Below are positions 9,456-64,000 of a DNA stretch of 64,000 nt, piece by piece. Location: positions 150,910,001 through 150,974,000 of the forward strand of contig CM059431.1 in assembly GCA_030390025.1 (NCBI GenBank), written 5' to 3'. Every line of letters starts with the position of its first letter. Positions within the stretch are counted from its first letter, which is position 1. The translations under genes and the position numbers were made by a program. This stretch comes from Squalus acanthias. Its lineage: Eukaryota. Under the pieces are notes generated by a model. That model made no database searches. It was not told the DNA's origin and saw only the letters and a list, made by a program, of their open reading frames with translations.

Positions 9456-11490
9456 CAGTAATGTTAGAATAGGTCATCACCAGTAATGTTCGTGTCGTGT
9501 CACTATCAGAAATGTTAGACAAGAGCCACCACCAGTAATGTTAGAGTAGAATTACCAACGGTGCTGTTAGAGTAGGATCATCACGGTTAATTCTAGAATA
9601 ATGTCACCACCAGTAATTTAGAGTAGGATCACTTCCAGTAATGTTAGAGTAGAGTCACCACCAGTAATGTTAGAGACGAGTCGCCTCCAGCAATGCTAAA
9701 GTCGAGTCACAACCAATAGTATTAGACGAGGGTCTCTACCAGTTATATTCGAGTTCAGTCGCCTCCAGTAATGTTGGAGTAGTGTCATCCCCAGTATTGT
9801 TAGTGTAGAGTCTGCACCAGCAACGTTCGAGTAGGGTCAAGAGCAATAAGATTGGAGTAGAGACCCAATCATTAATGTTAGACAAGTGTCATCAGCAGTA
9901 ATATTAGTGTAGATTCAGCACCAGTAATGTTAGAATGGGGTCTACACCAGTACTGCTGGACTTGGATTACCACTAGTAATGTTAATGTAGATTCAGCACC
10001 AGCAATAACATAGTAGAATCACCACCAGCAATGTTCGAGTAGGGTCAACTTCAGTAATTTTAGAGTAGAGTCACCACCTGTAATGTTAGAGTAGGGTCTC
10101 CACCAGTAATGTTAAACTATGTTCATCACCAGTAATATTAGAGTGGGGTCAGGACCAGTAATTATATTGTAGAGCCACAGGCCAGTAAAGTTAGAGAAGT
10201 GTCATCATCAGTAATGTAAGAGTGGGATCTCCAGCAGTAATGTTATAGTAGGGTCACCACCAGTTTTGTCAATGCAGGATCACCACCAGTAATGTTAGAA
10301 TAGGGTCACCACCAGTAATGTTATAATAGGGTCACCACCAGTAATGTTAGAATAGGTTCACCACCAGTAATGTTTGAGTACAGTCACTACCAGTAACGAT
10401 AGCTTAGATTCAGCAGAGGTAATGTTAGAATAGGTTCACCACCAGTAATGTTAGAGTAGGCTAAACTCCAGTAACGTGAGACTAATGAACAGTAATGTTC
10501 GAGTGCAGTCACGACCAATAATGTTAGAGTATTGTCACAAGCAGTAATCTTGGACTAGTGTCAACACCAGCAATGTTATTGTACAGTCACCGCAATTAAC
10601 GTTAGAATAGGGTCCCCACCACATATATTAGAGTAGAGTCAATACCAGCAATGTTACAGTAGAGTCACCACCAGTAATGTTAGAGTTGGGTCAATACCAG
10701 CAATGTTATAGTAGAGTCACCGTCAGTAATAATTCATTAGAGTCACCATCAGCAATGTTAGATTAGCGTCAGTACCAGTAATGTTAGAATAGGGTCACCA
10801 CCAAAAATTTTAGAGTAGAGTCCCCAGCAGCAATGTTAGAGTAGAGGCAGCACCAGTAATGTAACAGTGCGGTCACCACCAGTAATATTGGAGTGCGGTC
10901 ACCAGCAGTAATGTTACTGTAGAGTCACCACCAGTAATGTTAGAGTAGAGGCACAACCAGTAATGTTCGGTTAGAGTCCCCACCAGTAATGTTAGAGTAG
11001 ATTCACTACCAGTAATGTTAGAGTGCGGTCACCAGCAGTAATGTTAGAGTAGAGTCACCACCAGTAATGTTAGAATAGCGTCACTTCCAGTAATGTTAGA
11101 GGAGGTTCTTCACAATTAATGTTAGTGTAGGGTCTCCATCAATAATCTTCGGTTCAGTCATGACCAATAATGTTAGAGTAGGTTCACCACCAGTAATTGT
11201 CGAGTTGATACATCACCAATAATGTTAGATTAGGGTCATCACCAGTAATCTTACTGTATGATCACCACCAGTAATATTAGAGTAGAGTCATCACAATTAA
11301 TGATAGATGATGGCCACTACAAGTAATATTAGTGTAGGATCACCACCAGTAATATTGGAGTAGAATCATCACCATTAATGTTAGGTGATGGCTACCACCA
11401 GTAATTTTATTTTAGGATCACCACCAGTAATATTAGAGAAGTGTGTCGGCCAGTAATGTTAGGGCAGGATCGTCAACAGTAACGTTAAAG
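9456..11490 (-). repeat. 26-bp satellite array B, reverse orientation, directly upstream of GPCR gene 1
   Basis: Tandem CCAGTAATGTTAGAGTAGGGTCACCA monomers. Confidence 0.96.
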
Positions 11491-11868
11491 CGTTACTTAT
11501 GGAATGGATGAGAGAATATTTCACCAAATTATGTGAGGCCCTTAGAAGCTAACACAGGGACTTGGAGAGATGTTCCCTTCAGGTTTCACATGGCGGGTGC
11601 AGAGCGCATTCCCTCTGGAATTAACTCCCTTTCATTGTTTTTAATGGACGGAGTTTCATGGACTCAGATGTACAATTTCCCCATTGGGCGCACTGAAGCG
11701 GAAAATCGCCCCTTGTTTGTTAAGTGGCTGTAACTATGTTCAATTATTGTGTAACCTCGCTTTCTCACCAGGTCACGGATTGTTCTATAAAGGGGGAGCA
11801 TTTACGGATCTCAGATAAACGCCAGTCGGAACTGTAAAGCAGGACAGTATTCACACAGTCTTCTGAAA
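11491..11868 (+). promoter_or_regulatory. Proximal promoter/5' UTR of GPCR gene 1, TATAAA at 11786-11791
   Basis: Alignable to 18876-19270 and to the reverse complement of 60005-60400 (AATGGATGA..ATTTCAC, GCGGAAAAT, TTCTCAC, CTATAAA). TATA lies 83 nt before the ATG. Confidence 0.7.
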
Positions 11869-14414
11869 ATGGCACGGCCAATAATTCTACAGATAAAGGA
11901 CATATACTATCATTTTCTCGCAGACTTTGGTATTCTCGGTAAGTCAATGCATCTTGTTGTTTAATAGTTGTTAACGAACTCACTGTTAATGATTATGTTA
12001 CAGATTCCGTGAAGATCATTTATCTACCGGGATAATTTGGTGAATATCAGCGGGAATCCGACCAGTTTGCCCGGCCGGTTAGGCGCTATTCTGGCCGGCG
12101 GATCTTGGGCACGGGGCACTCAACTTCACTCTCTATACTGAGGGAGGGCGAGGCTGATTCCCCGGCCCCTCCAACAGTATTAAAGAATGTGTTGCTTAGT
12201 GTCCATAGCATTTATTTCATTTGTCCCGTGGTTCCCTGTCTATTTTATGCTGATAATTGCTCGGACTGCAGCTACCTCCACCCAACAGCTGAATCTTTTA
12301 TTGAATCCATATATTTCCAGTAATTGCTGCGAAATTATATTTAACCGCTGTCTGAAGTATGGTGGAAGGGAGTCGGAATTTGAGTCCCTCTATATTGAAT
12401 ATTCAGTGTTTCATTCCTTTTAAATCAATTTTTTAAGATATATATAATGACCTGGATATTGGAATACAGGGTAGAATTTTTAATTTGCCCCATGACACCA
12501 AACTGGGGGCATGGCAAACGTAGCTGCAACAGGACATAGAAAGGCTAGCAGAATGGGAAGACAAGTGGCAGATGGAATTTAATACAGAGAAGTGTGAGGT
12601 GATGCATTTTGGCAGAAGGAACAGGGAGAGGCAATATACACTCAGTGGCACAGTTTTAAGATTGTGCAGGGACAGATGGACCTGGAGTTAATGTGCATAG
12701 GTCCTGATGGTGGCGGGACATATTGAGAGAGTGGTTAACAAGAATATGGATCTTGGGCTGCATAAATAGAGGTATTGAGTACAACAGCAGAGAAGTTATG
12801 CTGAACCTTTATAAAACGCTAGTTAGGCCACAACTGGAGTATTGCTTCCAGTTCTGATCACCACACTTTAGGAAGGATGTGAAGGCCCTTGAGAGGATGC
12901 AGAGGAGAATTCCCAGAATGTTTCCGGGGATGGGGGTTCTGGCTAAAAGGACAGGTTGGAGAAGCTGGATTTTGTTTAATTAGAGCAAAGGAGGTGAGCG
13001 GTGATTTGATTATGGCGGGTATGGATAGGCTAAACGGGGAAGGCTGTTCCCAGTAGTTGATGGTAAAAAGACTAGGGGACACAAATTTAAGGTTTTGGGT
13101 AAGAGATACAGGGGGGGTGGTGAAGAAAAACTTTTTTACGCAGTGAGTGGTGAACACCTGGAATTCACTACCGACGGAAGTGGTGGAAGCGGAGACAGTC
13201 AATGTATTCAAGAGCTCACTGGATAGGCACTTGAGGGAAATAATCTTGTAGGGCTACGGGGATAGCGGCGGGTGGATGAGACTGACTGGAGTGCTCTACA
13301 GAGAGCCGGAACGCACTCGATGGGCCGAATGCCCTCCCTCTCTGCAGTAATGTCTGTATGGCTCTTTGACTCCTCAACGCTCGCCTATATGGCAAAAAAT
13401 CAATTTCGGTAACGCTAAATAGGCACACATCTGAGCATTCCCCACAATAAGCTGTGATATTTATCCTGGTGACCCTGTTACTAAACTCTTCTCCCTCTTC
13501 CTTACAGCGAACCTACTGACAATCCTGATTCTCTCCGGAGGAAATTGCGGCTTTTCCAAATGTATCTCGATTTATATGTTGGTCATGGCGACAGCAGATC
13601 TACTGGTCATCATCTTCCATATACTGGTGTTTCAGATTTTCAGTTACCACTTTCCGCATTGATTCCTGTCCTACACTGCCGTGTGTAAGGCCATTCATTA
13701 CTTCAATACCGTCACCCTGGAAATGTCGGTGTGGTTTACAGTCTTGTTTACTTTTGACCGATTTGTAACTATATGTTGTCAGAAGTTTAATACAAAGTAT
13801 TGCACAGAGAGAACTGCGGCAACTGTTTTAACAACTGTCCTTGTGCTGGCCTGTATAGAGAATATCCCCTTTGCTTTCTCCTATCAATCTCAACGAATCA
13901 TTAACAATGTTTCCTGGGGATGCCGCCCCAATGAAGCCTTTTATTCATCGCCTGCAGGCATAGCCTATTTCCGCATTCAAAGTATTTTAGTTCCATGGTT
14001 TGCTGTTGCTTCGATATTACTGTTTAATTGTTTGACAGTCAGACGCATTGTATTAAGCAGTCGGGCCCGCAGGTCACTCCGGGTCACTGCAGTGAGAATC
14101 AGAGCGATCCAGAGATGGAGAGCCGGAGGAAATCCATCATTTTACTGTTCACTGTATCGGGCAGTTTTATACTGTTGTGGTTGACATCTGTCGTGAGTAA
14201 CTTGAAGAACAGCCTGGCCGTTTACTACAAAGGTGAATATGAAACCCCTGCATACATCCTGTCTGAAAGCGGATATATGCTCATGTATTTGAGTTCCTGT
14301 ACAAACACCTGCATTTATGCAGCGACACAAACCAAATTCAGGCAAGAGTTGGTGAAGGTGGTGAAATCTCCCTGGACATTGATTCTCATATTGGTTAATA
14401 AAATGAAGAATTAA
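11869..14414 (+). pseudogene. GPR139/GPR142-like class A GPCR, gene 1, pseudogene. Exon 1 11869-11938, exon 2 13508-14414
   Basis: Exon 1 MARPIILQIKDIYYHFLADFGIL, then G/gtaagt. Acceptor cttacag/CG AAC CTA (ANLLTILILS). TM motifs MATADLL, FDRF, WGC, SSCTNTCIYAATQTKFR. In-frame TGA at 13660-13662 (Ser in gene 3) and a 1-nt deletion at ~14081-14083. Confidence 0.88.
12445..13367 (+). mobile_element. CR1 LINE 3' fragment in the intron of gene 1
   Basis: Decayed RT C-terminus (KWQMEFNTEKCEVMHFG, LYKTLVRPQLEYC) and a CR1-type terminal hairpin. Absent from the introns of genes 2 and 3. Confidence 0.88.
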
Positions 14415-15449
14415 AGCATAGCTTCCTGTCCTAACTAGAGCTCAATTAAAGCCCGTGTTCCGTTTTAGAATGGCAATCTTTACCTTGGGACAAAAGACGA
14501 TTGTTCTTGTGAAAATGAACAGGTATCAGGAAATATTATTCCCACTTTGTGCCGTGTGTTTGATGTCTGCTGCTTTCCCGGTGTGAACATAATCGATTCC
14601 CGCTAAAACAGCGCCCTTCCCGCTCAAGATTCAAGGAGAACAGTCATGACTGAGCTTCAGCAGTGAGTAGAACATGTGTGCGTCAGCGTTAACTACCTCA
14701 CACAGCAGCTACTGGAATCAGAAGCTCAGTTTATTTAACAGATAAACATTCCTTTAGTGTAGAAACAATGTGTTACAATGGTGTTTTTTTGTAATTCTGT
14801 AATCTTGGTATGAATGTTGCCAGCGCTGGACTCCCCATCAGACTCCGCCCCCCATTGTCACCTGGACCAATAGAACGGGGCTGTGTCTCCTGATCAGTGT
14901 CCAATGATGGAGACAGTAGGAACTTGACTCGTCAATGTGACATTAGACATCTTTGTTCACAGATATTTACTGAAAGTCTCAAATGGTCATCAGTTTGTTG
15001 GAATGTTATAAGAGGGGAAAAGACTGTTTAACCCAATTAGTCCTTCTCAGCGTTTACCCTCCAGCCGAGTAAATAGTTCCAATCACGTTATCCGCCCGGT
15101 CTCAACATCAATTCAACCTACTCTTGTTCACACAAATTATTCTCCAATTTTGACATAATTTCTGCCTCTATTAATTTCACAGCTTCACCACTCTCCATAT
15201 AAAGAGGAGTCTCTGACCACCCGTTTTAAATCTCTTCAATCCATTCGTTAATCCATAGCCGTTAGTCCCAGAACCTTCAAATATTGGCAGCAGTCTGCTT
15301 CTTTCTATTCTGTACCGTACCATCTTAACCTAAAGCACCTGCGCACAACTCGCCAAAACATCTCATCCTGGTAACAATTCACAATCTAGTGCAAGTCAGG
15401 TAAGTGTAGTTAAGATAGTTAATTGATTGCTTTCTCTTAGAGATGAAAG

Positions 15450-17995: not shown

Positions 17996-18000
17996 TCATT

Positions 18001-18875
18001 ATCCACCAGTAATGTTACAGAAGGGAGACCACAAATAATGTTAAATGAAATTCACCACCAGTAATGTTAAAGTATGATCACCACCAATAACATTAGAGTA
18101 ATGTCTGCACCACTAATGTTAGAGTATGGTCACCACCAGTAATGTTACAGTCGGGTGACCAACACTAATGTTACAGTAGGCTCACAACTAGTAATTTTAG
18201 AGTAGGGTCACTACCAGTAATGTTACATTACGATCAGCACCAGTAATGTTAGTATAGGTTCACTACCATTAATGTTAGAGTAGGCTCACCACCAGTAATT
18301 TTAGAGTAGGGTCTCCACCAGTAATGTTAGAGCCGAGTCACGACAAGTAATGTTGAAGATGATTCACCGCTAGCAGTGGTAGAGCAGCGTCACCAGCAGT
18401 AATGATAGAGAAGAGTAACCACAATAATGTTAGAGTACGGTCAGCACCAGAGATATTAGTATAGAGTCACCACCAGTAATGTTAGAGTAGGGTCACCGCC
18501 AGTAATGTTAGATTAGGATCACCACCATTAATGTTAGAGTAGAGTCAACACCACTAATGCTAGAGTAGCGTCACCAGCAGTAATGTTAGAGTAGATTCAC
18601 CGTCAGTAATGTTAGAGTAGAGTCACCACCAGTAACGTTAGAGTAGGGTCATCATCAGTAATGATAGAGTAGGGTCACCACCAGTATTGTTAGAGTAGAG
18701 TCACCACCAATAATGTTAGAACCTTTTCACCACCAGTAATTTTAGAGTAGGGTCACCAACAGTAATGTTAGAGTAGAGTCACCACCAGTAATGTTAGAGT
18801 AGAGTCACCACCAGTAATGTTACAGTACAGTCACAAGCAATAATGTTAGAACCTTTTCACCACCAGCAGTGTTAG
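18001..18875 (-). repeat. 26-bp satellite array C, reverse orientation, directly upstream of GPCR gene 2
   Basis: Tandem CCAGTAATGTTAGAGTAG(G/A)GTCACCA. About 33 monomers by length. Confidence 0.96.
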
Positions 18876-19270
18876 TGCCGATTTTTTCATCACAATGTAA
18901 AACCAATTTTAAATATGTAATGGATGAGAGAAGATTTCACCCGATTATTATCGGTCCCCAAGAACCTAACGCCTTGACCGGGAGTGGTGCTCCCTTCAGA
19001 AATCCCATCTCGGGCGCAAAGCTTACTTTCCGGTCATTAATTTTAAAGTGCGTATTTTCATGTACTGAGGGAGACAATTTCCCCATTGGCATCCCCGGTG
19101 CACTGTAGCGGAAAATATTTTGTTACGTGATTGTAAGAAACGTCAGTTATTGTGGAAGCTGATTTTCTCACGGGGCACCGAGTGTTCTATAAAGGGGGAG
19201 CATTTACGGATCTCAGATACACTCCAGTCAGAAACCTAAACCGGACAGAATTCACGCAATATTCTATAAA
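18876..19270 (+). promoter_or_regulatory. Proximal promoter/5' UTR of GPCR gene 2, TATAAA at 19188-19193
   Basis: Homologous to the gene 1 and gene 3 upstream regions. TATA lies 83 nt before the ATG. Confidence 0.7.
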
Positions 19271-21055
19271 ATGGCACGGCCAATAATTCTACAGGTAAAG
19301 GAAATTTACTGTCCTGTTCTCGCAGCCTTTGGTATTCCTGGTAAGTCAGATTATTCTGTTGCTAAATAGCTGTTGACTATCTCACTGCTAATGATTATGT
19401 AACAGATTCCGAGAATACTCTCATTGCAGAGTCACTTCTCCAGCGAGCTGAATTGCGGAATATCAGCGGGAATTCGACCAGTCAGCGCATTCTCGACCGG
19501 GCGCTCAGGATTCCTTCCTGTACTGTGGGAGGGCGAAGCTGATTCCGAGGCCCTTCCAGCAGTATATCGTTCACTACAGAATGTGTTGCTTATTGTCCAT
19601 GGTCATCATCTCATTTGTGGATTTGTTCCCTCTCTATTCTACGTTGTTCATTGCTCGGACTGCAGCCACCTCCACCCAACAGGGGGCGTTGAAAGGTATT
19701 TTAAACAAACACTGCCGCACAGGGAGCTACTCACCTCCGTTCGGCTGCAAAGAACCTCTGCGGTTCCTCCAGCTCCCGTTCTTTTCCCGAGTATTTCGGC
19801 CCGGGATGATTATAAATAGGACAATTCCAGTTTATCGATATAAATAGAATGTTTGCATTTCAGCTGATTTTTTTATTTAAGTTCATATTTTTCCAGTAAA
19901 CGCTGTGAAATTATGTTAAATATTTTTCGAGGACTGAATGACCCATGCTGGAAGAATGCTAGATTTTCAAACCCTCTAGTGTTTTTAAACAGGATGCCGT
20001 CAACGCGCGCCGATATATAAAAAAGTATAAATGTGTTTAACCCTAAGTAGGGAGACATTAGCATTCCCCCACAATATACTGTGAGATTTATCTGAGTGTC
20101 CCCGTTACTGACCACTTCTCCCTCTGTCTTACAGCGAACCTACTGAAAATCGTGATTCTCTCTGGCGGAAATTGCGGCCTTTCCAAATGTATCTCTGTCT
20201 ACATGGTGGCCATGGCAACAGCAGATCTACTGATCATGCTCACCAATGTGATAGTGTATCACACTTTTACATATCACTTTCCAGGTTGTTTCCTGTCCTA
20301 CACTGCCGTTTGTAAGTTAAATGTGTACATGAATTCTCTCACGCTAGATATGTCGGTGTGGCTTACAGTCTTGTTCACATTTGACCGATTTGTAACTGTA
20401 TGTTGTGAGAACATTAAAACAAATTATTGCAAAGTGAGAACGGCTGCCTCAGTTGTAACAGCCGGCACACTACTCTTCAATTTAAAGAACATCCCCTTTT
20501 GGTTTGCATATGAAGCTGAGCGAATAACTAACAATGTTCCGTGGGGATGTCGCTCCAGAGTGGAGTTTTTTCTATCAGCTGCAGGTACAGCGTTCTCCTG
20601 GTTACAAAGTATTTTAATTCCATGGCTTCCTTTTGCTTTGATATTACTGTTTAATTGTTTGACAGTCAGACGTATTTTAGTGGCCAGTAGAGCCCGCAGG
20701 AGTCTCCGAGGTCACAGCAGTGAGACTCAGAGCGATCCAGAGATGGAGAATCGAAGGAAATCCATTATTTTACTGTTCAGTGTATCAGTTAGTTTTATAG
20801 TGTTGTGGCTGACAGCTGCCGTGAGTTTTTTTAACTACCAGACTGAGAAACATCGAGCATTATCGAGGCGATTATGCAGCCACTGCATATGTCGCCACAG
20901 AAACCGGATATCTACTCATGTATTTGAGCTCCTGTACAAACACCTGCATTTATGCAGCGACCCAAACTAAATTCAGGGAAGAGCTGAAGAAGGTGGTGAA
21001 ATCTCCTTGGGCATTGATTCTGATTTTGGTTAAATTAAATGTAAAATCAAACTGA
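19271..21055 (+). pseudogene. GPR139/GPR142-like GPCR, gene 2. Exon 1 19271-19340, exon 2 20135-21055. A single +1 frameshift in a T7 run, so either a recent pseudogene or a sequencing error in an intact 329-aa gene
   Basis: Exon 1 MARPIILQVKEIYCPVLAAFGIP, then G/gtaagt. Acceptor cttacag/CG. Removing one T from 20826-20832 gives ...VSFLTTRLRNIEHYRGDYAATAYVATETGYLLMYLSSCTNTCIYAATQTKFREELKKVVKSPWALILILVKLNVKSN, stop TGA at 21053-21055. Confidence 0.85.
19676..19690 (+). promoter_or_regulatory. Putative CTCF core motif in the gene 2 intron
   Basis: CCAACAGGGGGCGTT against the CTCF consensus CCASYAGRKGGCRS. TGCAG lies upstream at 19661-19665. Confidence 0.45.
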
Positions 21056-21634
21056 AACTTCCTGCCCTAACTAAAGCTCAATTGCAGCCCGTGCTCCACT
21101 TTAGAATGGCCCTCGTTCGGCTCCCATGACAATGGATTGTTCGGTTTAAATAAACAGTTCCCAGGAAACATTTTCTCCACTTTCTGCCGTGTGTTTGATG
21201 TTTTCTGCTTTCCCCGCGTGAACATAATCGATTTCTCCTAAAACAGCGCCCTTCCCGCTCATGATTCAAAGGGAACAGTCATGATTGAGCTTCAGTAGTG
21301 GAGTGGAATATGTGGACGTCAGCGTTAACTGCCTCACACGGCAGGTACTGGAATGACACGCTCAGTTGAATTAACAGATAAAGCTTTATCTAGTGTAGAA
21401 ACAGTGAAGGGTTTTACAATCCTGGTTTTTTTAAGTCTTCTGTAATCTTGCGGGCGCTGATCTCCCCATCAGACTCCGATCCCATTGTCTCCTGGACCAA
21501 TAGAACGGGGCCCTGTATTCTGATCAGTGACGAATGATGGAGACAGTCGGAACCTGACACGTCAATGAGACATTAGACATCTTTGTTCACAGATACTAAC
21601 ATAAAATCTCAACTGGTCATCAATATTTTGGAAT

Positions 21635-23880: not shown

Positions 23881-26800
23881 TAAGAACATAAGAACATAAG
23901 AAATAGGAGCAGGAGTAGGCCAATTGGCCTCTCGAGCCTGCTCCGCCATTCAATAAGATCATGGCTAATCTGATCCTAACCGCCAATCTACTATCACAGA
24001 ACCATCTCCTGAACCTAACAGAATTGGACACACGAAATAGGAGCAGGATCCGGCTACACGGCCCCTGGGCCCGCTACGCTACCCACAGGGCCATGACCGA
24101 TCCGAACCTAGACTCATGTCCAAATTCCTGCCCGCTCGCCGTAACCCTTAATTCCCTTTACTTCTAGGAATCTGTCTATTACTGTTTTAAATTTATGTAA
24201 TGATGTAGCTTCTACAGCTTTTTGGGGCAGCATATTCCATGGACCTACCAACCGCTTAGTGAAGTAGTTCCTTCTCATCTCAGTTTTGAAAGAGCAGCCC
24301 CTTATTCTAAGACTATGCCCCCTAGTTCTAGTTTCACCCATCATCGGGAACATCCTCCCCGCATCCACCCGATCCAACCCCTTCACAATGTTATATGTTT
24401 CAATAAGATCGCCTCTCATTCTTCTGAACTCCAATGAGTAGAGTCCCAATCTACCCAACCTCTCCTCATATGTTCGTCTCCTCTTCCCCGGGATTGACCG
24501 AGTGAACGTTCTTTGTACTGACTCGAGAGCAAGTATGTATTTTCTTAAGTATGGACACCAAAACTGTATGCAGTATTCCAGGTGCGGTCTCACCAATACC
24601 TTGTACAACTGAAGCAATACATCCCAATTTTTATATTCTATCCCCTTAGCAATGAAAGCCAACATTCCATTTTCCTTCTTAATCACTTGCTGCACCTGCA
24701 TACTAACCTTTTGAGTTTCGTGCACCAGGACCCCCAGATCCATTTGTACTTCAGTACTTTCCAGTTTCTTGCCATTTAGATAATAACTTGCTCTACTATT
24801 TTTCCTGCCAAAGTGCATAACCTCACACTTTTCAGTATTGTATTCCATCTTCCAAATCTCTGACCACTTACTTAGCCTGTCTATGTCCCCTTGCAGATTT
24901 TTTATGTCCTCCTCACTCACTACTTTCCCTCCCATCTTAGCATCATCTGAAAACTTTGATATGTTACACTCGGTCCCCTCCTCCAAAACGTTAATAAAGA
25001 TTGTAAAGAGTTGGGGACCCAGCACTGACCCCAGCGGAACACCACTAGTTACTGATTGCCAGTCTGAGAATGAACCATCTATCCCAACTCTCTGCCTTCT
25101 GTTAGCTAGCCAATCCTCTATCCATGCCAGAATATTACCCCCAATCCCGTGATTTTTATCTTAAGCAATAATCTTTTGTGTGGCACCTTGTCAAATGCCT
25201 TTTGGAAGTCTAAATGCACCACTTCCACTGGTTCCCCTTTATCCACCCTTTCTGTTACTTCCACAAAGAACTCCAGCAAATTTGTCAAACATGACTTCCC
25301 CCTCATAAAACCATGCTGACTTTGTCCTATTAAATTATGATTATCCAAATGTCCCGTTACTGTCGCCTTAATAATGGACTCCAAAATTTTACCTACCACA
25401 GATTTTAGGCTATAGTTTCCAGCCTTCCGTCTACTGCCCTTTTTAAATAAGGGTGTTACATTAGCAGTTTTCCAGTCTGCTGGGATCTTTGCTGAGTCCA
25501 GGGAGTTTTGGAAAATTATTACCAATGCATCCACAGTCCCCACCGCCACTTGCCTCAAGACGCTAGGATGTTAGCCATCAGGTCCAGGTGATTTATCCAC
25601 CTTGAGTTCCATTATTTTACCGAGTACCACTTCCTTAGTGATTTTGATCGTGTTTAGCTCCTCCCCCCCCTATAGCCCCCTGTTTGTCCAGTGTTGGGAT
25701 ATTCTTAGTGTCCTCTACTGTAAAGATTGATACAAAATATTCATTCAGTGTATTTGCCATCTCCATATATCCCACCATTAATTTCCCGGTCGCATCCTCT
25801 AAGGGACCAACATTTGCTTTAGCCACCCTTTTTCATTTTATATAACTATAAAAACTCTTACGATCTGTTTTTATATTTTTTGCTAATTTACTTTCATAAT
25901 CTATCTTCCCTTACTTAATCTATCATTTTGTTATTTTTTGCTGTCTTTTAAATTTTCCAAATCCTCTATCCTCCCACTACATTTGGCTACCTTATAAATC
26001 CTTGTTTTTAGTTAAATACTATCCTTAATTTCTTTACTTAGCCACCGATGACTGTCTTTTCTTTTACACCCTTTTCTTCTCAGTGGAATATATATTTTTT
26101 GGAAGTTGTAAAATAACTCCTTAAATGTACACCACTGATCATGTGTCGTCTTACCCTTTAATCTATTTTCCCAATGCACTCTCCTAAATTCCGCTCGCAT
26201 ATCTTCATAGTCTCCTTTATTCAAGCTTAGCACCCTTGTTTGAGATAAAACCTTCTCACCCTCTAATTGAATATGGAATTCAACCATGTTATGGTCACTC
26301 ATTCCAAGGGTATCCTTTACTAGGACATTTTTAATTAATCCTGTCTCGTTACACAGGAGCAGATCTAAGGTTGCATGCCCAACTGATCAGTTCAGTTACA
26401 CAGTGCTCAAGAAACCGGTCCCTAACACACTCAATGAACTCATCCTCAAGGCAGCCCTGCCCAATTTGATTTGTCCAATTAATATGATAGTTAAAATCCC
26501 CATAATTATAGATGTTCCCTTATTACAAGCCTCAACTATTTCCTGATTGATACTCCGTCCAACAGAGTTGCAACTATTTGGAGGCCTATAGACTATGCCC
26601 ACTAGTGTTTTTTCCCCTTATTATTCCTTATCTCCACCCAAACTGTTTCATTATCTTGATCTTTTGACCCAATATCATTTCTCTGTATTACAGTGATTCC
26701 TTCCTTTATTAACTTGGCCACCCACCTCCCCTTCCTTCCTGCCTGTCCTTCCTGATCGTTAAATAACCTGGTATGTTTAATTCCCAGGCATTGTCACCCT

Positions 26801-37289: not shown

Positions 37290-40200
37290 ATGTCTAACGA
37301 AGCTAATTGATTTTCTTTGAGGAGATAACTAACGTTGTCGTTAATCATGTTGCTATGGATGCTATTTACATGAATTACAGAAAGCATTGCCAAGGTTGCA
37401 CATAATAGACTGTTAACTAAGATGAGTTTGCATGGAATTGGAGGCAAACTTTTGGCTTGGATAGGGTATTGGTCAGGAGATCGAAGACAGAGAGTATGCT
37501 CAAATTGGCAGGATGTGACGAGTGGTGTCTACCTGGGATCGCTACGTAGCCTCAGCTTTTCAATATATTTATACATGACTTGGACGAAGGATAGAGAGCA
37601 ATATATCTAAGTTTGCTGACGATGCTAACTTAGGTCCCACAATAAATAATGCAGATGGAGGAGAAATTTGCAAGGGGTCATTGATAAATTAAGTGAGTGG
37701 GCAAAACTGTGGTAGATAGAGTATAACGTGGGAAAATGCGAAGTCATCCACTTTAGATCAAACAAAGGCAGATCAGAGTGTTTTCTAAATGGTGAGATGT
37801 TAGCAAGATAGCATCTGCAGATGATCAGATAGATTTAGTGGTCCAAATACCGAAATCACTAAAAGCTAGTGGACAGGTACAAAAAATAATTAAAAAGGCT
37901 AACGTAATGTTGGTTTTACCTCAAGAGGGCTGTAATACAAAGGGTGGTGGTTATGTTACAGCTGTAGAGAACTCCGGTAAACCCCATCTGGAGCACTGTG
38001 CGCAGTTCTGGGCACCGCACCTCAGGAAGGATATATTGGCCTTGGAGGGGGTGCAGCGCAGACTCACCAGAATGATACCAGGGCTAAAAGAATTAAGTTG
38101 CATTTAATGCAGAAGATTAAGGGTAGTTCTAAGTGAGGTGTTTAAGATGATCAACGAGTTGATAGGGTAACTAGAGAGATACTCTTCCCTCTGGTGGAGG
38201 GAGTCTAGAAGAAGGGGGTATAATCTTTAAATTAGAGCTAGGCCGTTCAGAGGTGATGTCAGGAAGCGGTTATAAGAACATAAGAACATAAGAAATAGGA
38301 GCAGGAGTAGGCCAATTGGCCCCTCGAGCCTGTTCCGCCATTCAATAAGATCATGGCTGATCTGATCCTAACCGCCAATTTACTATCACAGAACCATCTC
38401 CTGAATCTAACCGAATTGGACACACGAAATAGGAGCAGGATCAGGCTACACGGCCCCTGGGCCCGCTCCGCTACACACAGGGCCATGACCGATTCGAACC
38501 TAGACTCATGTCCAAATTCCTGCCCGCTCCCCGCAAAACTTAATTCCCTTTACTTCTAGGAAACTGTCTATTTCGGTTTTAAATTTATGCAATGATGTAG
38601 CTTCTACAGCTTTTTGGGGCAGCATATTCCATGGACCTACCACCCTCTGAGTGAAGTAGTTCCTCCTCATCTCAGTTTTGAAAGAGCAGCCCCTTATTCT
38701 AAGACTTTGCCCCCTAGTTCTAGTTTCACCCATCATCGGGAACATCCTCCCCGCATCCATCCGAACCAACCCCTTCACAATCTTATATGTTTCAATATGA
38801 TAGCCTCTCAATCTTCTGAACTCCAATGAGTAGAGTCCCAATCTACACAACCTCTCCTCATATGTCCATCAACTAAACCCGGGATTAACCGAGTGAATCT
38901 TCTTTGTAATGACTCGAGAGCAAGTATGTCTTTTATTAAGTATGGACACCAAAACTGTATGCAGTAATCCAGGTGCGTTCTCACTGATACCTTGTACAAC
39001 TGAAGCAATACCTCCCTATTATTATATTCTATCCCCCTAGCAATGAAAGCCGACATTCCATTGGCCGTCTTAATCACTTGCTGCACCTGCATACTAACCT
39101 TTTGAGTTTCGTGCACCAGGACCCCCAGATCCCGTTGTACTTCAGTACTTTCCAGTTTCTTTCCATTTAGATAATAACTTGCTCTACTATTTTTCCTGCC
39201 AAAGTGCATAACCTCACACTTTCCAGTATTGTATTCCATCTGCCAAATCTCTGCCAACTTGCTTAGCCTGTCTAAGTCCCCTTGCAGATTCTTTATGTCC
39301 TCCTCACTCAATGCTTTCCCTCCCATCTTAGTATCATCTGCAAACTTTGATATGTTACACTCGGTCCCCTCCACCAAATCGTTAATACAGATTGTAAAGA
39401 GTTGGGGACCCAGCACTGACCCCTGCGGAACAGCACTAGTTTCTGATTGCCAGTCTGAGAATGAACCATTTATCCCAACTCTCTGGTTTCTGTTAGATAG
39501 CCAATCCTCTATCCATGCCAGAATATTACCCCCAATCCCGTGATTTTTTTATTTTAATCAATAATCTTTTGAGTTGCACCTTGTCAAATGCCTTTTGGAA
39601 CTCTAAATACACCACACCACTGGTTGCCCTTTATCCACTCTGTATGTTACTTCCTCAAAGACCTCCAGCAAATTTGTCAAATATGACTTCCCCTTCGTAA
39701 AACCATGCTGACTTTGTCCTATTAAATTATGATTATCCAAATGTCCCGTTACTGTCTCCTTAATAAAGGACTCCAAAATTTTACCTACCAAAGATGTTAG
39801 GCTAACCGGTCTATAGTTTCCCGCCTTCTGTCTACTGCCCTTTTAAAATAAGGGTGTTTCATTAGCAGTTTTCCTGTCTGCCAGGATCTTTGCTGAGTCC
39901 AGGGAGTTTTGGAAGATTATCACCAATGCATCCACAATCCCTACCGCCACTTCCCTCAAGAACCTAGGATGTAAGCCATCAGGTCCAGGTGATTTATCCG
40001 CCTTGAGCCCATTATTTTACCGAGTACCACTTCCTTAGTGATTTTGATCGTGTTTAGCTCATCCCCCCCCCTATAGCCCCCTGTTTGTCCAGTGTTGGGA
40101 TATTCTTAGTGTCCTCTACTGTAAAGACTGATACAAAATATTCATTCAGTGTTTTTGCCATCTCCATATTTCCCTCCATTAATTACCCGGTCTCATCCTC

Positions 40201-42270: not shown

Positions 42271-42490
42271 TAGAGTGAGAGAGAGAAACAGAGAGAGTTT
42301 GAAAGTGGGAGAGAGAAAAAGAGAGGGAGAGAGACAAAAACAGTGAGAGAGACAAAGAGTGAGAGAGAGAGAAAGAGTGGGAGAGCGAAAGTGGGAGAGA
42401 GAGAAACGAAAGGAGGGAAAGAGATGGAGAGATTGAAAAGGGGGGGAGAGAGAGAATGCGAGTAAGAATGAGAGAGAATGCGGAAGAGGG
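42271..42490. repeat. GA-rich purine simple repeat
   Basis: (GA)n-like low-complexity tract. Confidence 0.9.
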
Positions 42491-50394: not shown

Positions 50395-50467
50395 GACCGG
50401 ATAGCTCAGTCTGTATAACATCAGTCTTTTAATCTGAGCGGCCAGGGCTCAAGTCCCTGTTAAGGCA
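50395..50467 (+). pseudogene. tRNA-Lys(UUU) pseudogene
   Basis: GACCGGATAGCTCAGTCTGTATAACATCAGTCTTTTAATCTGAGCGGCCAGGGCTCAAGTCCCTGTTAAGGCA. Confidence 0.75.
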
Positions 50468-55375: not shown

Positions 55376-55382
55376 GAGCTTG

Positions 55383-55455
55383 TCCCGGATGGCACAGCCG
55401 GTAAAGCGCCCGACTTTTAATCTGAGGGTCCAGGATTCAAGTTCCTGTTGGGGCG
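55383..55455 (+). pseudogene. tRNA-Lys(UUU) pseudogene
   Basis: TCCCGGATGGCACAGCCGGTAAAGCGCCCGACTTTTAATCTGAGGGTCCAGGATTCAAGTTCCTGTTGGGGCG, then CTGCTTTT. Confidence 0.75.
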
Positions 55456-55854
55456 CTGCTTTTAACAGTGAAGACAACACCTAAGTTTACACTTGAAAGC
55501 AATGAAATCAGAAAATACCCCATCAAAAGAATCATACGTTTATTTACAACGGTTTAATATAGATTAAGTAAATACTAGGAAATGTAATATATTTCAAAAT
55601 GCAGGTGTTGTGACAAATATGCAACAAATATTAAGAAGTTTTATTGAGACAACAGGGAAGAACAGCTTTAAACGCTCGGGTTTCATGTAGCTGCATAAAC
55701 ATAGAAATTGACCATCTCTAAACTACCGCTCAATGTATTTAAAGCACCGCCACTGTGACAAATCTTTCAAATACGTTAATGAGATCAGCATGAACGGTTT
55801 GTGCTTCAGGGGGTTGCCTGAAAGATGGAATTGAGAATTTTGATTTAAAAGCAG

Positions 55855-55927
55855 CGTTCGTACAGGAACGTGACACCTGAAGCCTCAGATTAAAAGCCTG
55901 ATGTTTCACCGACTGAGCCATCTGGGC
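55855..55927 (-). pseudogene. tRNA-Lys(UUU) pseudogene
   Basis: GCCCAGATGGCTCAGTCGGTGAAACATCAGGCTTTTAATCTGAGGCTTCAGGTGTCACGTTCCTGTACGAACG. Confidence 0.75.
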
Positions 55928-55974
55928 TCGCGCCTTTTTTTATAACACACCGACTTTCAGTGGGTTTCACCTAA

Positions 55975-57985: not shown

Positions 57986-58174
57986 CGATAATGTACAGCC
58001 GGGGAAAGCAGCAGACATCAAACACACCGCACAAAATGGAAGAAATGTTTCCTGATACCTGTTCATTTTCGCAACAATAATCTCGTTTTCGTCACAACTG
58101 AAAGAAGGTCATTCTAAAACGGAACAGGATATGCAATTAATTACTAGTTAGGAAAGGAAACTCTGGTTTGATCT

Positions 58175-60004
58175 TCATATTTTGTTAACCAAGTTCCGAA
58201 TCAATGTCCAGGGAGCTTTCACTAATCTCACCAGCTCTTCCCTGAATTTGGTTTGGGTCGCTGCATAAATGCACGTGTTTGTACAGGAGCTCAAATACAT
58301 GAGCATAAATCCGCTTGCAGAGGCGATGTATGCAGCAGATGTATAATCGGGTCGTTCATAAATGACCAGGGAGTTCATTAAATAACTAACGACAGCTGTC
58401 AGCCACAACAATATAAAACTACCTGATACACTGAACAGTAAAATGATGGATTTCCTCCGGCTCGCCATCTCTGGATCGCTCTGATTCTCACTGCTGTGAC
58501 CCCGGAGTCTCCTGCGGGCTCTACTGGCCACTAAAATCCGTCTGACTGTCAAACCATTAAACAGAAATATCAAAGCAAAAGGAAGCCCTGCAGTTAAAAG
58601 AGTTTCTAACCAGACAAATGCTGTAGCTGCAGGCGAGGTGAAGAAGTCAATTTTCAAGCGGCAACCCCAGTGAATATTGTTAATGATTCGTGCAGTTTCA
58701 TATGCAAACGAATAGGGGATATTGTCCAACCAGAGCAGAACAGAGACCATTGTTATTACGGCGGCCGCAGTTCTCACTGTGCAATATTTCGTTTTAAACT
58801 TCTCACAACTTATCGCGACATAGCGGTCAAATGTGAAGGAGATGGTAAACCACACGGACATATCGAGGGCAACAGCATTCAAGTATACAAGCAACCTACA
58901 GACGGCAGTGAAGTTGAGGAATGAATGTGGAAAGTGATATGTAAAAACGCGGTACAGCAGCACATTGATGATCATGACCAGTAGATCTGCTGTTGCCATG
59001 GCCACCATGTAGACCGAGATACCTTTGGAAAGACCGCATTTGCCTCTGGAGAGAATCACGATTGTCAGTAGGTTCGCTGTGAGAAAGAGTGACAAGCGGT
59101 CAGTAACGGGCACACTCGGATAAATCTCACACCATATTGTGGGTAAATGTGCAGATGTGTCCCTGTGCAGGCGCATTTTTAATTATATAGGCTGGTTTTA
59201 ACGAAGAGGTTTTTTTTACATGAACACTCAATATACAGGGATTGAAAATCACGCGTCCTTCCCTCAGACTTCAGACAGACATCGCCAAATATAAAATGTA
59301 ATTTCACAGCAATTACTGCAAATATATGAATTCAAACGAAGCATTCAGTTGAGAGAACATCATTCAATTTAGGTCGAAACTCTGCGCTTTTTCTTTGTAC
59401 AATTGCCTTGGGGCGGGGGGTGGGGCGGTGGGGGTTGGTGGGGGCGGTGAGCTGGGAGCTGCTTGGTAACAGAGCGGGATCTGGTGGAGACGCGAATGTA
59501 CTTTGCAGCCAAGGGGAGTGGAGCAGCTCCTGAGCGGCAACTACTGCTCAAAGTATCTTTCAAAGTCCCCTGTTGGGTGGAGGTGGCTGCAGTCCGAGCA
59601 ATTATCAACGTAAATTAAACAGGGTACAAGTGTACACATGATGTGATTACTATCCACAGGAAGCAGCACATCCTGTAGTGATCTCTATACTATTGGAGGG
59701 GCCGGGGGAAGTCAGCTTCGCCCTCCCTCAGTACAGGAAGAAAGCGAGCGCCCGGCACCCACGAGCTACCGACCAGCCTCACCAGCCGCGTGGACTGGTT
59801 GGATTCCCATTGATATTCACCAACTTATCCCGATGGTTAAGTGACTCTGCAATGAGGACATTCTGAGAATCATTACATAATAATTAAAACTGAGATAGAC
59901 AACAGCCATTAGACAACAGGATTCACTGACTTACCTGGAATGCCAAAGGCTGCGAGAGCAGGATAGTAAATGATGCTGACCATTTGAATTGTTGACAGTG
60001 CCAT
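58175..60004 (-). CDS. GPR139/GPR142-like class A GPCR, gene 3, intact, 323 aa. Exon 1 60004-59935, exon 2 59076-58175
   Basis: Exon 1 MALSTIQMVSIIYYPALAAFGIP, then G/gtaagt. Acceptor ctcacag/CG AAC. 70+902 = 972 nt in frame to TGA. Seven hydrophobic segments; YY...GIPANLLT, ATADLL, FDRY, C(TM3)/WGC and NTCIY resemble GPR139 (YY..LGLPANILT, AAADIL, IDRY). Confidence 0.92.
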
Positions 60005-60400
60005 TTTTATAAAGAATATGTGACTTCTGTCCGGCACTTTGGTTAGTATCAGAGTGTACATGCGATCCATAAACAATCTCATTTTATAGCAAAGTCGGTG
60101 CCCCGGTGAGAATATTAGTCACATGACAATTGGCGTTAGTTACAGTCACTTAACCAACAAGGCAAGATTTTCCGCTTCAGTGTGCCTGGGACAACAAAGG
60201 CGACATTTTACAACTCAATTCAAATGAACGAACGGGACCTGATACTAGATGGAATGTATTGTGCACAATCACCTTGATCACCGAAGGGAACATCCCACAC
60301 GGGTACTGCGTCAGGTTACTGGTGCCTCGTAATAATTCGTGAAATCTTAAATCATCCATTAGATAGTTAAATTTAGCTTTGTACTATGATGATAAATGGA
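60005..60400 (-). promoter_or_regulatory. Proximal promoter/5' UTR of GPCR gene 3, TATAAA at 60088-60083
   Basis: Reverse complement aligns with the gene 1 and gene 2 upstream regions (GCACACTGAAGCGGAAAAT, TTCTCACCGGGGCACCG, CTATAAA). TATA lies 84 nt before the ATG. Confidence 0.7.
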
Positions 60401-63400
60401 GGTGACCCTAATCTAATTTAACTGCTGGTACCCTACTCTAATCTTACTGGTGATGATTCTACTCCAATATTACTGGTGGTGAATCAACGCAAACATTACC
60501 GGTGGTGAACCTATTCTAACATTAATGGTGGTGACCCTACTCGAACATTACTGGTGGTGACTCTACTCCAACATTACTGGTGGTGACCCTACTATAACAT
60601 TACTGGTGGTGACTCTACTCTAACATTACTGGTGGTGACTCTACTCTAACATTACTTGTGGTGACCCGACTCTAACATTGCTGGTGGTGATTCTACTCTA
60701 ACATTACTGGTGGTGACTCTACTCTAACATAACTGGTGAAGAGTCTACTCTAACATTACTGGAGGTGACCCTAATCTAACATTACTGGGGGTGAGTCTAC
60801 TCGAACATTACTGGTGGTGAGTCTACTCTAACATTACTGGGGTTGAGTCTACTCGAACATTACTGGTGGTGAGGCTACTCGAACATTACTGGGGGTGAGT
60901 CTACTCTATCATTACTGGTGGTGAGTCTACTCTAACATTACTGGGGGTGAGTCTACTCGAACATTACTGGTGGTGAGCCTACTCGAACATTACTTGCGGT
61001 CACTCTACTCTAACATTACTGGTGGTGACCCTACTCTTCCATTACTGGTGGTGAGTCGACTCTAACCTTACTGGTGTTGAGTCTACTCTAACACTACTGG
61101 TGGTGAGTCTACGCTAACATTACTGGTGGTGTGGTTATTCTAACATTACTGGTGGTGACATTACTTTAACATTACTGGTGGTGAGTCTACTCTAACATTA
61201 ATGGTGGTGACTCTACTCCAACATTACTGGTAGTCACTCTACTCTAACATTACTGATGGTGACTCTACGTTAACATTACTGGTGGTGACTGTACTCTAAC
61301 ATTACTGATGGTGACTCTACTCTGACATTACTGGTGGAGACTCCACTCTAACATTACTGTTTGTGACACTACTCTAACATTAATGGTGGTGAGTCTACTC
61401 TAACATTACTGATGGTGACTCTACTCTGACATTACTGGTGGAGACTCCACTCTAACATTACTGTTTGTGACACTACTCTAACATTAATGCTGGTGAGTCT
61501 ACTCTAACATTACTGGTGGTGAGTCTACTCTAACATTACTGGTGGTGAGTCTATTCTCACATTACTGGTGGAGACCCTACTCTAACATTACTGGTGTTGA
61601 GTCTACTCTAACATTACTGGTGGTGAGTCTAATCTGACATTACATTTGGTGAGCCTACACTAACACTAGTGGTGGTGAGTATACTCTATCATTACTGGTG
61701 TTGAGTCTACTCTAAAATTACTGGTGGTGAGAATACTCTTACATTCCTGGTGGTGAGTCTACTCTAACATTACATGTGGTGAGACTACTCTAACATTAAT
61801 GTTGGTGACTCTACTCTAAATTACTGGTGGTGAATCTACTCCTACATTACTGGTGGTGAGTCTACTCTAACATTACTGGTGGTGAGTCTACTCTAACATT
61901 ACTGGTGGTGACACTACTCTAATATTCCTGATGATGAGTCTCCTCTAACATTACTGTTGCTGAGTCTACCCTGACATTACTGCTGCTGACCCTACTCTAA
62001 CATTTTTGGTGGTGACTCTAGTCTATCATTACTGGTGGTGACGCTACTCCAACATTACTGGCGGTGATTCTACTCTAACATTAATGGTGGTGAATCTACT
62101 CTAACATTAATGTTCGTGACTCTACTCTAACATTACTGGTGATGAGTCAACTCGAACAGTACTGGTAGTGACTCTACTCTAACTTTACTGGTGTTGAGTC
62201 TACTCTAACATTACCTGTGGTGAAACTACTCTAACATTACTGGGGGTGAGTCTACACTAACATTACTGGTGGTGAGTCTACTATAATATTACTGGTGGTG
62301 CGTCTACTCCAACATTGCTGTTGGTGACACTACTCTAACATTACCAGTGGTGACCCTGCTCTATCATTACTGGTGGTGAACCTACTCGAACATTACTGAC
62401 GGTCACTCTACTCTAACATTACTGGTTTTGAGTCGACTCTAACATTACTGGTGGTGTGTCTACTCTGACATTACTGCTGCTGACCCTACTCTAACATTAC
62501 TGGTGGTGACTCTAATCTAACATTACTGGTGGTGAGTCTACACTGACATTACTGCTGCTGAACCTACTCTAACATTACTGGTTGTGAGTCGACTCTAACA
62601 TTACTGGTGGCGAGTCTACTCTAACATTACTGGTGGTGACTCTAATCTAACATTACTGGTGGTGAGTCTACACTGACATTACTGCTGCTGAACCTACTCT
62701 AACATTACTGGTTGTGAGTCGACTCTAACATTACTGGTGGTGACTCCACTCTAACATTACTGGTGATGAGTTTACACTAACATTACTGCTGGTGAGTCTA
62801 CACTAACATTACTTGTGGTGAGTCCACTCTAACATTACTGGTGATGAGTCTACTCTAACAGTACTGGTGGTGACTCTACTCTAACATTACTAGTGATGAG
62901 TCCACTCTCACATTACTGGTAGTGAGTCTACTCTATCGTTACTGGTGGTCAGTCTATTCTATCATTACTGGTGGTGACCCTACTCTAACATTACTGATGG
63001 TGACCCTGCTCTAACATTACTGGTGATGAGTCTACTCTAACATTACTGGTGGTGACCCTACTCTAACCTTACTGAGGATGAGTCTAATATAACATTACTG
63101 TTGGTGAGTCTACTCTAACATTAATGTTGGTGAGTCTACTCTAACATTACTGCTGCTGAACCTACTCTAACATTACTGGTGATGACCCTACTCTAACATT
63201 ACTGGTGGTGACTCTACGCTAACAATACTGGGGGTGAGTCTACTCTAACATTACTGGTGGGGAGTCTACTCTAACATTACTGGTGTTGTCCACTCTAACA
63301 TTACTGGTGGTGAGTCTAATCTATCATTACTGGTGTTTTGTCCACTCTAAGTTACTGGAGGTGAGTCTACTCTAACATTACTGGTTGTGACACGACTCGA

Positions 63401-64000
63401 ACATTGCTGGTGGTGAGTCTACTCTAACATTACTGGTGGTGACGCTACTCCAACATTACTGGTGGTGAATCTAATCTAACATTAATTGTCGTGACTCTAC
63501 TCTATCATTACTGGTGTTGACTTTACTCTAACATTACTGGTGGTGAGATTACTCTAACATTACTGGTGGTGACTCTATTCTCACATTAATGGGGGTGAGT
63601 CTACTCTAACATTACTGATGGTGAGTCTACTCTAACATTACTTGTGGGTGACACTACTCTAACAATAATGGTGGTGACTCTACTCCAACATTACTGGTGG
63701 TGAGTCTACTCCAACATTACTGGTGGTGACTCTACTCTAACATTACTGGTGGTGACTCGACTCTAACATTACTGGTGGTGACTCAACTCTAACATTACTG
63801 GTGATGTGTCTAATCGAACATTACTGGTGGTGACCCTGCTCTACCATTACTGGTGGTTATTCTACCCTAACATTACTGGTGGTGACACTACTATAACATT
63901 ACTGGTGGTGAGTCTACTCTAACATTACTGGTGGTGAGTCTACACTAACATTACTTGTGGTGAGTCTACTCTAACATTACTGGTGGCGAGTCTACACTAA
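60401..64000 (+). repeat. 26-bp satellite array D, directly upstream of GPCR gene 3, running off the right edge
   Basis: Tandem CTACTCTAACATTACTGGTGGTGAGT monomers. More homogeneous than arrays A and B. Confidence 0.97.

Follow-up and report, generated by a model that had tools for sequence, protein, structure and literature searches.

We analysed a stretch of 64,000 nt from Squalus acanthias (assembly GCA_030390025.1, contig CM059431.1, positions 150,910,001 to 150,974,000 of the forward strand), here called the window; positions without a contig label are counted from its first letter. The window lies within contig C7 (159.8 Mb, i.e. ~160 Mb) of a 3.7-Gb genome and contains three copies of a gene cassette, which is composed, in the direction of transcription, of a sense-oriented array of a 26-bp satellite, a CCAAT/TATA promoter of ~400 bp, an exon 1 of 70 nt, an intron, and an exon 2, and which specifies a GPR139-like G-protein-coupled receptor (GPCR). 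The satellite and the receptor gene were found paired at the homologous position and in the homologous orientation for all three window genes and for 20 of 20 paralogues sampled elsewhere in the genome (alternate rows among the top 40 of 120 scored receptor matches, with 9 kb upstream of each).

Gene 3, on the minus strand, is intact. Its exon 1 (59935–60004; zero-mismatch match to the exon-1 motif at C7:150969928) and exon 2 (58175–59076) together encode a class A GPCR of 323 amino acids, the N-terminus of which matches 324-residue annotated proteins of other elasmobranchs. Gene 1, on the plus strand, has an exon 1 at 11869–11938, encoding the N-terminus, which matches the annotated 324-residue homologues as well, and the first half of transmembrane helix (TM) 1, and an exon 2 with the 7tm_1 body at 13508–14414; open reading frames (ORFs), Pfam and spliced translation identify it as a pseudogene, since codon 75 is a stop and the frame shifts further downstream. 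Gene 2, also on the plus strand, consists of an exon 1 of 70 nt at 19271–19340 (zero-mismatch motif match at C7:150929319) and an exon 2 with the 7tm_1 body at 20135–20970 (Pfam and spliced model). Its frame is lost in TM6-7 and a premature stop is present at codon 302, so that it is probably a pseudogene. The start codons are at 11869, 19271 and 60004 (minus strand). All three genes share the length of exon 1 and the donor G/GTAAGT, and the acceptors, ...YAG/CGAACCTACTG, are at 13508, 20135 and 59076 (the slash marks the splice site). A model in which exon 2 is a single-exon gene with an upstream in-frame start was rejected, because there is no conserved in-frame ATG and the 324-residue homologues fit the two-exon model.

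In an alignment of the exon-2 region of 22 paralogues (including L031–L050; L-numbers denote loci taken from the genome outside of the window), the last ~75–90 intron nucleotides before exon 2 are at least 95% identical, i.e. more conserved than most of the coding sequence. This intron end, at 59077–59165 (minus strand, gene 3), 13420–13507 (plus) and 20047–20134 (plus) in the window, reaches far past a normal polypyrimidine tract and has no in-frame ATG that is conserved; a possible role is that of a regulatory or splicing element within the intron.

The three upstream regions of the window align with 79% column identity, and the array-promoter junction and the promoter can be aligned column by column in 25 cassettes (the three window genes, the sampled loci, and three arrays found via a satellite search, i.e. 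L008, L016, and L026). The original prediction, made from the letters of the window alone, had described the junction as homologous and the TATA promoter as conserved, and both descriptions hold for the larger set. The aligned region contains a decayed monomer-like junction element, a 35-nt block with CCAAT and CAATTA, and a TATA box. The 35-nt block (CTTGTTTGTTAAGTGACTGTAACTAACGCCAATTA in the consensus) is located ~45 nt upstream of TATAAA, with most of its columns conserved at 90% or more in the 25 cassettes, and is found at about 11741–11775, 19144–19178 and 60100–60135 (minus strand) in the window. The CCAAT box in this block overlaps the CAATTA, which reads TAATTG on the other strand. With a simple script search, TATAAA was found 82–88 bp before the ATG in 22 of the 25 cassettes; on closer look, genes 2 and 3 have it at the same distance, and an exact TATAAA was not found in L036, the third cassette outside of the 22. 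The promoters occupy 11491–11868 in gene 1 (TATAAA at 11786), 18876–19270 in gene 2 (TATAAA at 19188, with CAATTA ~45 nt upstream), and 60005–60400 on the minus strand in gene 3 (TATAAA from about 60088, with the conserved CCAAT/CAATTA block upstream). A palindrome resembling an O/E (EBF) site was considered for the promoter and discarded, as only TCCCTTC(A/G)G is conserved.

The arrays upstream of the promoters were delimited with Tandem Repeats Finder (TRF) and by scanning for the monomer. Array B (plus strand, 9451–11490, ~78 copies, 69% TRF matches) precedes gene 1, with 393 bp between its last recognisable monomer and the ATG. Array C (plus strand, 18003–18875, ~33 copies, 76% matches) precedes gene 2, and array D (minus strand, 60401–64000, 137 copies within the window, 82% matches) precedes gene 3; each is in sense orientation to its gene. 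The TRF intervals are 9451–11462 (77.7 copies), 18003–18850 (32.7 copies), and 60433–64000 (137.3 copies, running out of the window). The copy numbers per array in the window range from 33 to 198 at a period of 26, as is typical of a tandemly repeated satellite. At three or fewer mismatches, 180 monomer matches were found in the window versus none in 100 shuffles; those in arrays B and C are on the plus strand, those in arrays A (see below) and D on the minus strand. As originally predicted, the ~41 kb between arrays C and D are free of the satellite: no monomer match was found at 18836–60451 even at five or fewer mismatches. This gap consists of debris of long interspersed nuclear elements (LINEs) with RVT_1 and GDSL ORFs, and it contains an AG-rich microsatellite with an 18-nt repeat (42272–42456) that adjoins a LINE ORF1 (GDSL) fragment.

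A fourth array, the array complex A, which lies outside the coordinates of the original prediction, extends over 1–8125 on the minus strand (TRF; 68 minus-strand monomers at three or fewer mismatches), is at least 8 kb long and leaves the window on the left. At five or fewer mismatches it is resolved into blocks at 25–2387, 2569–5678, 6319–6863 and 7165–8125, with interruptions at about 5701–6311 (a LINE fragment) and 6903–7138, and degenerate monomers continue up to about 8410. The LINE 3′ fragment inside array A spans 5659–6311, and its ORF resembles the C-terminal parts of the reverse transcriptase-bearing ORFs at 24114–25160 and 38506–38868. With its minus-strand sense (at least 8 kb, 1–8410), array A opposes array B, which has plus-strand sense and starts at 9451, with ~1 kb between them. 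No gene belonging to array A was seen within the window; it belongs either to a gene located left of the window or to array B, as a distal block that was inverted. Array D continues beyond the right end of the window (L051, C7:150974001–150979000) for another 1.33 kb, followed by an inverted block of 1.56 kb and then at least 2 kb in minus-strand sense. The strand flips at positions 1329–1367 and 2924–2941 of L051, the monomers meet head to head, and the inverted block has no promoter after it. Small antisense blocks are also present inside the array of L049.

On the scale of the genome, the monomer occurs 31,314 times at two or fewer mismatches, versus 0 for a reversed-pattern control. All 20 sampled paralogues have a sense-oriented upstream array, and in 19 of them the promoter and exon 1 follow directly behind it; the exception, L047, is a truncated gene. 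One sampled locus has an intron of 7.8 kb, and even there the array lies directly against the promoter. In all 25 cassettes, recognisable monomers stop 393–495 bp before the ATG, and in 17 of these cassettes the register relative to the ATG is within about 4 bp of one value (offset 22–25, 0 or 1 modulo 26). The predicted short distance between the array and the ATG of each window gene, and the proposed enrichment with strand concordance upstream of receptor genes, are thus borne out far beyond the window, with sense arrays that end about 400–500 bp before the ATG in 23 of 23 genes. The orientation had been called the same throughout; this is correct for the promoter-proximal array, which runs in the sense of its gene in all 25 cassettes, but not for the distal parts, as the inverted blocks of array D/L051 and of L049 show.

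The perfect monomers and dimers that were listed map to C7 between 136.9 and 159.7 Mb, to C21, C29, and to small contigs, and none of those listed is on C1–C6 or C8–C20. The same contigs also contain listed receptor matches, with the exception of C21 and of the small contigs C306, C680, C711, and C744. We grouped the 100 perfect dimers listed, of 219, into 42 array clusters and tallied these manually against the listed receptor and exon-motif matches. Among these matches, 28 of the 42 clusters have a same-strand gene element at most 10 kb downstream, while a rough estimate from the positions listed puts the chance expectation well under 1% per cluster. The proximal arrays of open-frame genes in the 20-locus sample range from about 0.15–0.4 kb to more than 7 kb and vary more than 25-fold in length, and the pseudogenes (g1, g2, L038, and L047) retain arrays of 0.85–2 kb. 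The original observation that the longest array precedes the only intact gene is thus an anecdote of the window; with four to five broken genes, the sample is too small for a test of array length against gene integrity.

The genes belong to the Rhodopsin family (class A) of receptors according to the Pfam profile 7tm_1 (PF00001, gathering cut-off 30.5 bits): exon 2 of gene 3 scores 77.9 bits over profile positions 2–260, gene 2 scores 53.2 bits, and two fragments of gene 1 score 32.9 and 21.8 bits. The best solved structure for gene 3 is human GPR139 (PDB 7VUG and 9M42; 42.5 bits, E 5e-10), followed by the prolactin-releasing-peptide receptor with 37.1 bits; with exon 2 alone, the values are 38.8 bits for GPR139 versus 37.5 bits for the latter receptor. 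The GPR139 score is barely higher than that of the second receptor, and the family is only distantly GPR139-like. The label “probable GPR139” of its elasmobranch relatives is an automatic annotation, with which the Atlas clusters agree. At E ≤ 1e-10, 2,367 public proteins match; the best 120 are all from sharks and rays, most of them are called “probable GPR139”, and the top identity is 76%.

In most vertebrates GPR139 is a single-copy gene. Like human GPR139, the shark receptors are class A GPCRs, but in contrast to it they are present in hundreds of fast-evolving copies. The receptor query gave 4,907 first-look candidates in the genome, and all of the 120 scored candidates reach E ≤ 8.2e-136, with identities of 65–100% and, in many of them, no stop. 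Stringent motif searches found 233 exon-1 ends, 248 exon-2 starts and 371 third intracellular loops, so that the one or few copies expected of a GPR139 orthologue were not found, but 233–371 motif-positive copies; these counts are lower bounds for divergent copies and are possibly inflated by haplotigs (97–98% identical pairs on small contigs). Two such pairs, L040/L048 (C3857/C196) and L042/L044 (C2044/C1142), are 97–98% identical over 7–10 kb and differ by large indels, among them 5.9 kb inserted into the intron of L044. Each pair might consist of two alleles assembled on separate contigs, which would inflate the copy counts. The genes on C7 occur in tandem and inverted runs over 23 Mb. The terminal ~23 Mb of C7 (136.9–159.7 Mb) form a single receptor-plus-satellite domain, and many more copies are found on small unplaced contigs, suggesting that the receptor regions are hard to assemble.

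At least 17 of the 20 sampled paralogues have open frames. Among 18 gene copies (153 pairs), the ratio of nonsynonymous to synonymous divergence (dN/dS) spans 0.20–0.90 (median 0.47). Most of the variability falls in the helices and the extracellular parts, and hardly any in the third intracellular loop. In this loop, the DNA that codes for ...RGHSSENQSDPEME.RRKSIILLF... (e.g. 58480–58580, minus strand) is almost unchanged among paralogues with 65–90% protein identity, whereas helices 2–5 and 7 are strongly variable. Three small runs with the same species label yielded, at a likeness of at least 85%, only short paralogue contigs with no splice joints and with exon 1 and the promoter uncovered, and are uninformative on expression. 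No published description of the family expansion or of the satellite pairing was found in a search with little coverage of subscription journals, and the accessible portion of PMC11979771 yielded no passage on this receptor family.

The composition of the satellite was determined from 24 arrays with 2,544 monomers. TAAT, which belongs to the better conserved half of the unit, is intact in 73% of the monomers; TAATG is intact in 63%. The core is mostly TAATGT (55%), and TAATGA is present in 4.9%. GGGTCA is intact in 21% of the monomers and spans the most variable positions of the unit, i.e. positions 19 and 20. GAGTCA is found in 16% and GACTCA in 3%, and both fit the AP-1 consensus at only six of seven positions. 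Of the three motifs that had been read from the monomer, the homeodomain-type core is intact in most monomers, the nuclear-receptor half-site and the AP-1-like variants in minorities. The consensus monomer has no CpG, and the conservation per position, 0.74–0.94, tracks the type of base, with ~0.90 for A/T and ~0.84 for G/C. A transposon origin of the monomer was considered and rejected: against the LINE-rich, array-masked rest of the window, the best blastn-short matches of a monomer trimer were chance words of 10 nt with E 3.3.

The arrays are individually distinct, and they are colinear between close paralogues only. In colinear young duplicates they diverge at about the rate of introns and synonymous sites. 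For L040/L048, the identity is 97.1% over 2,020 bp of array, 97.6% in the promoter and 96.5% in the intron, with a synonymous divergence (dS) of 0.020; for L042/L044, the values are 98.3% over 859 bp of array, 98.2% in the promoter and 95.8% in the intron. As the divergence of the arrays equals that of the promoter, the intron and the synonymous sites, no constraint on the monomer sequence was detected. The mean monomer identity is 0.753 within and 0.749 between arrays, and the mean distance of the monomers from the consensus is 2.4–4.6 mismatches of 26 (9–18%), which is comparable with half of the median dS between subfamilies (0.365/2; the 153 pairs above). Taken together, the equal identities within and between arrays and the distance from the consensus make the arrays look like remnants of a single, homogeneous ancestral array, duplicated along with the gene.

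Identity profiles along the arrays were calculated for 11 pairs. In L040/L041, the identity stays at 0.90–0.95 across the promoter and up to ~140 bp into the array, and is 0.65–0.78, i.e. at background level, over the remaining 1.4 kb. The pairs g1/L049 and L041/L042 show the same drop, from ~0.9 to background ~140 bp into the array. These breakpoints are sharp, with random-monomer identity beyond them and flanks that are 86–91% identical. They appear to be exchange breakpoints inside the repeat, as would be expected of recombination repeats at cassette borders. Block indels distinguish the arrays of L031/L033 and those of L034/L038. An ungapped diagonal scan, which is sensitive to indels and was used qualitatively, revealed L034/L050 as the sole discordant pair (0.875 in the array versus 0.73 in the flank); both arrays are near-consensus, which explains the discordance without exchange. 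In the young pairs, the homology extends past the array, over 7.6–10 kb: it begins 1.4 kb upstream of the array in L040/L048 and covers the whole 10 kb in L034/L038. Hence the arrays were carried inside larger duplications, and the endpoints of recent duplications are not in the arrays. In the older cassettes of the window, the shared homology begins inside the array and stops 0.2–0.9 kb after the stop codon.

We consider it probable that the 26-bp satellite is a hitch-hiking, recombination-prone structural part of the ancestral cassette of a lineage-expanded “GPR139-like” gene family of elasmobranch type. The array would have arisen once, directly upstream of the promoter of the founder gene, and every segmental duplication of the gene would since have carried it along; this would be why all copies agree in the 3′ edge of the array, its register, its orientation and its distance to the ATG. 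At the sampled loci, the arrays behave after duplication as ordinary satellite DNA: they acquire point substitutions at about the neutral rate, monomer blocks are gained and lost, segments are inverted, the promoter-side edge of the array is stable, and unequal or ectopic exchange sometimes swaps out the entire distal part. The main mechanistic effect would be to place kilobases of family-wide homology beside each promoter, which would make the cluster recombination-prone and would probably have helped copy-number change and reshuffling. Nothing observed here needs a sequence-specific regulatory role.

Several observations weigh against this interpretation. The retention of the array at the same place in every copy is also expected under selection for the array, and the promoter CAATTA, which equals TAATTG, makes a homeodomain-type logic conceivable. 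The CAGTAAT part of the monomer (0.83–0.94) is somewhat better conserved than AGAGTAGGG. Arrays D (0.83), L046 (0.84), and L034 are markedly nearer to the family-wide consensus, and the variants are not mainly private; pure decay does not predict such arrays, and constraint or exchange between arrays would fit them. All of the sampled paralogues are at least 65% identical to gene 3. The number of monomers is ~28 per sampled gene (561 over 20 loci, at two or fewer mismatches within 9 kb) versus ~84 genome-wide (the total divided by the 371 loop motifs), which implies many more genes, much longer arrays, or arrays without genes. Among the matches listed, 14 of the 42 array clusters have no gene tied to them, including arrays of 8 to more than 14 kb at C7:146.49 Mb and on C711 and C744. 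It had been said at the outset that abundance of the satellite at receptor-free loci would speak against a specific pairing; the 28 gene-linked clusters show no such abundance, and the 14 others leave room for it.

The foremost alternative, which we rate as rather unlikely, is that the array is a cis-regulatory multimer, the TAATG cores of which would act as an enhancer, a silencer, a heterochromatin nucleator, or a gene-choice element setting the probability of expression. In all 25 cassettes the array keeps one orientation and a fixed distance to a conserved CCAAT/TATA promoter, which is compatible with such a role, although descent suffices to explain fixed orientation and spacing. The preservation of TAAT in the best conserved part of the unit and the persistence of some arrays close to the family-wide consensus would also fit, as would the chemoreceptor-like character of the family, with hundreds of clustered copies, mostly open frames and a dN/dS of 0.2–0.9 around the median of 0.47. 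TAATGA and TAATTG, the latter present in the promoter as CAATTA, are given as Lhx2 cores in the available parts of two studies (10.1101/2022.05.05.489571, 10.64898/2026.09.23.753647), but the core of the satellite is TAATGT in the majority of monomers and TAATGA in very few, and GGGTCA is rarely intact. The evolution of the arrays does not support the originally proposed multimerised enhancer or choice element tuned by copy number: young colinear arrays keep pace in their divergence with introns and synonymous sites, monomers of one array are no more alike than those of different arrays, pseudogenes keep their arrays, and those of open genes vary in length as described above. In a regulatory array, redundancy could mask weak selection on each monomer. 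A more far-reaching version, in which the receptors are an undescribed chemosensory repertoire of sharks and rays, the array is a choice or silencing module with its length as an evolvable dial, and recombination drives the turnover, appears improbable to us; the array could then be a natural multimer of homeodomain-type sites, or it could nucleate heterochromatin and so set how likely singular expression is.

A different role, and in our estimation an unlikely one, would be that of a driver of the expansion: the family would have been created by non-allelic homologous recombination between the arrays, with duplication endpoints in them. The older window cassettes, which share a unit from inside the array to shortly past the 3′ untranslated region, would be in accord with this, and so would the breakpoints within arrays, the inverted array junctions at A/B and D/L051, and the tandem and inverted gene runs over 23 Mb of C7 together with the many poorly assembled small contigs. 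However, the youngest pairs (L040/L048 and L034/L038) are homologous through and past the array, the array edge of old pairs can be explained by LINE insertions that eroded the intergenic DNA, and some of the 97–98% identical pairs may be haplotigs. For the weaker claim that the array is a recombination substrate, which was also part of the original prediction, the block indels, the inversions and the breakpoints ~140 bp into the array are circumstantial evidence. That the satellite is a mere chance neighbour, i.e. an unrelated dispersed satellite, a transposon-derived repeat or an assembly artefact, would account for the clusters with no gene tied among the matches listed, but it is extremely improbable in view of the 23 of 23 genes with an array and the 28 clusters with a same-strand gene within 10 kb, which far exceed the chance expectation. 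In addition, the listed perfect copies are confined to C7 136.9–159.7 Mb, C21, C29, and small contigs, most of them with receptor matches, and the monomer has no similarity to the LINE-rich rest of the window. An artefact of collapse or duplication is unlikely as well, because it would look otherwise than distinct arrays that are colinear in close paralogues only.

The pairing of a satellite with a gene family has precedents. Eichler et al. in 1998 (Genome Res 8:791) reportedly described beta-satellite in human 19p12 that is interleaved with a KRAB zinc-finger gene family, in blocks that flank multi-gene duplicons of tens to hundreds of kilobases. The shark satellite is similar in that it was amplified with a tandem family, belonging to the unit that is duplicated and offering a putative substrate for recombination; it differs in that there is one array per gene, in fixed orientation and ending about 400–500 bp before the ATG, in several hundred genes. 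In Trypanosoma brucei, 70-bp repeats lie upstream of nearly every variant surface glycoprotein (VSG) gene and are used in recombination, according to the accessible portions of PMC8612549 and PMC4858185. Like the VSG repeats as described there, the 26-bp satellite is a short tandem repeat that gives the members of a very large family a common stretch of homology at the 5′ border of their cassettes. In contrast to the VSG system, with its programmed conversion into an expression site, the shark-type genes each have their own TATA promoter downstream of the array. For the mouse, the passages available from 10.1101/2022.05.05.489571 and 10.64898/2026.09.23.753647 report that a multimerised 21-bp homeodomain site, with TAATGA and TAATTG as Lhx2 cores, raises the choice of an odorant receptor. 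The parallels to these x21 multimers, as far as those passages describe them, are repeated TAAT-type cores upstream of a large class A GPCR family and a proximal promoter site of the TAATTG type. Unlike the 4–5 engineered TAATGA copies, the shark arrays have ~10 to more than 300 natural copies, mostly TAATGT, that decay in a near-neutral manner. The resemblance is limited to the TAAT(G) core and the promoter CAATTA.

Irrespective of the role of the satellite, the locus is a natural experiment on the joint evolution of a satellite and a multigene family, with fixed array edges, turnover in the interior, and readable breakpoints. If the arrays are inert, they would represent a clean case of a satellite that hitch-hikes on an expanding cluster and destabilises it, which would also explain the poor assembly of these regions. 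If they are bound by factors or active in chromatin, they would be a natural counterpart of the engineered enhancer multimers that bias receptor choice. A small number of canonical odorant receptors has been reported for sharks and rays. The receptor family described here is an obvious candidate for a lineage-specific sensory repertoire, and a chemosensory function, if true, would make it a candidate answer to the scarcity of canonical odorant receptors in these animals.

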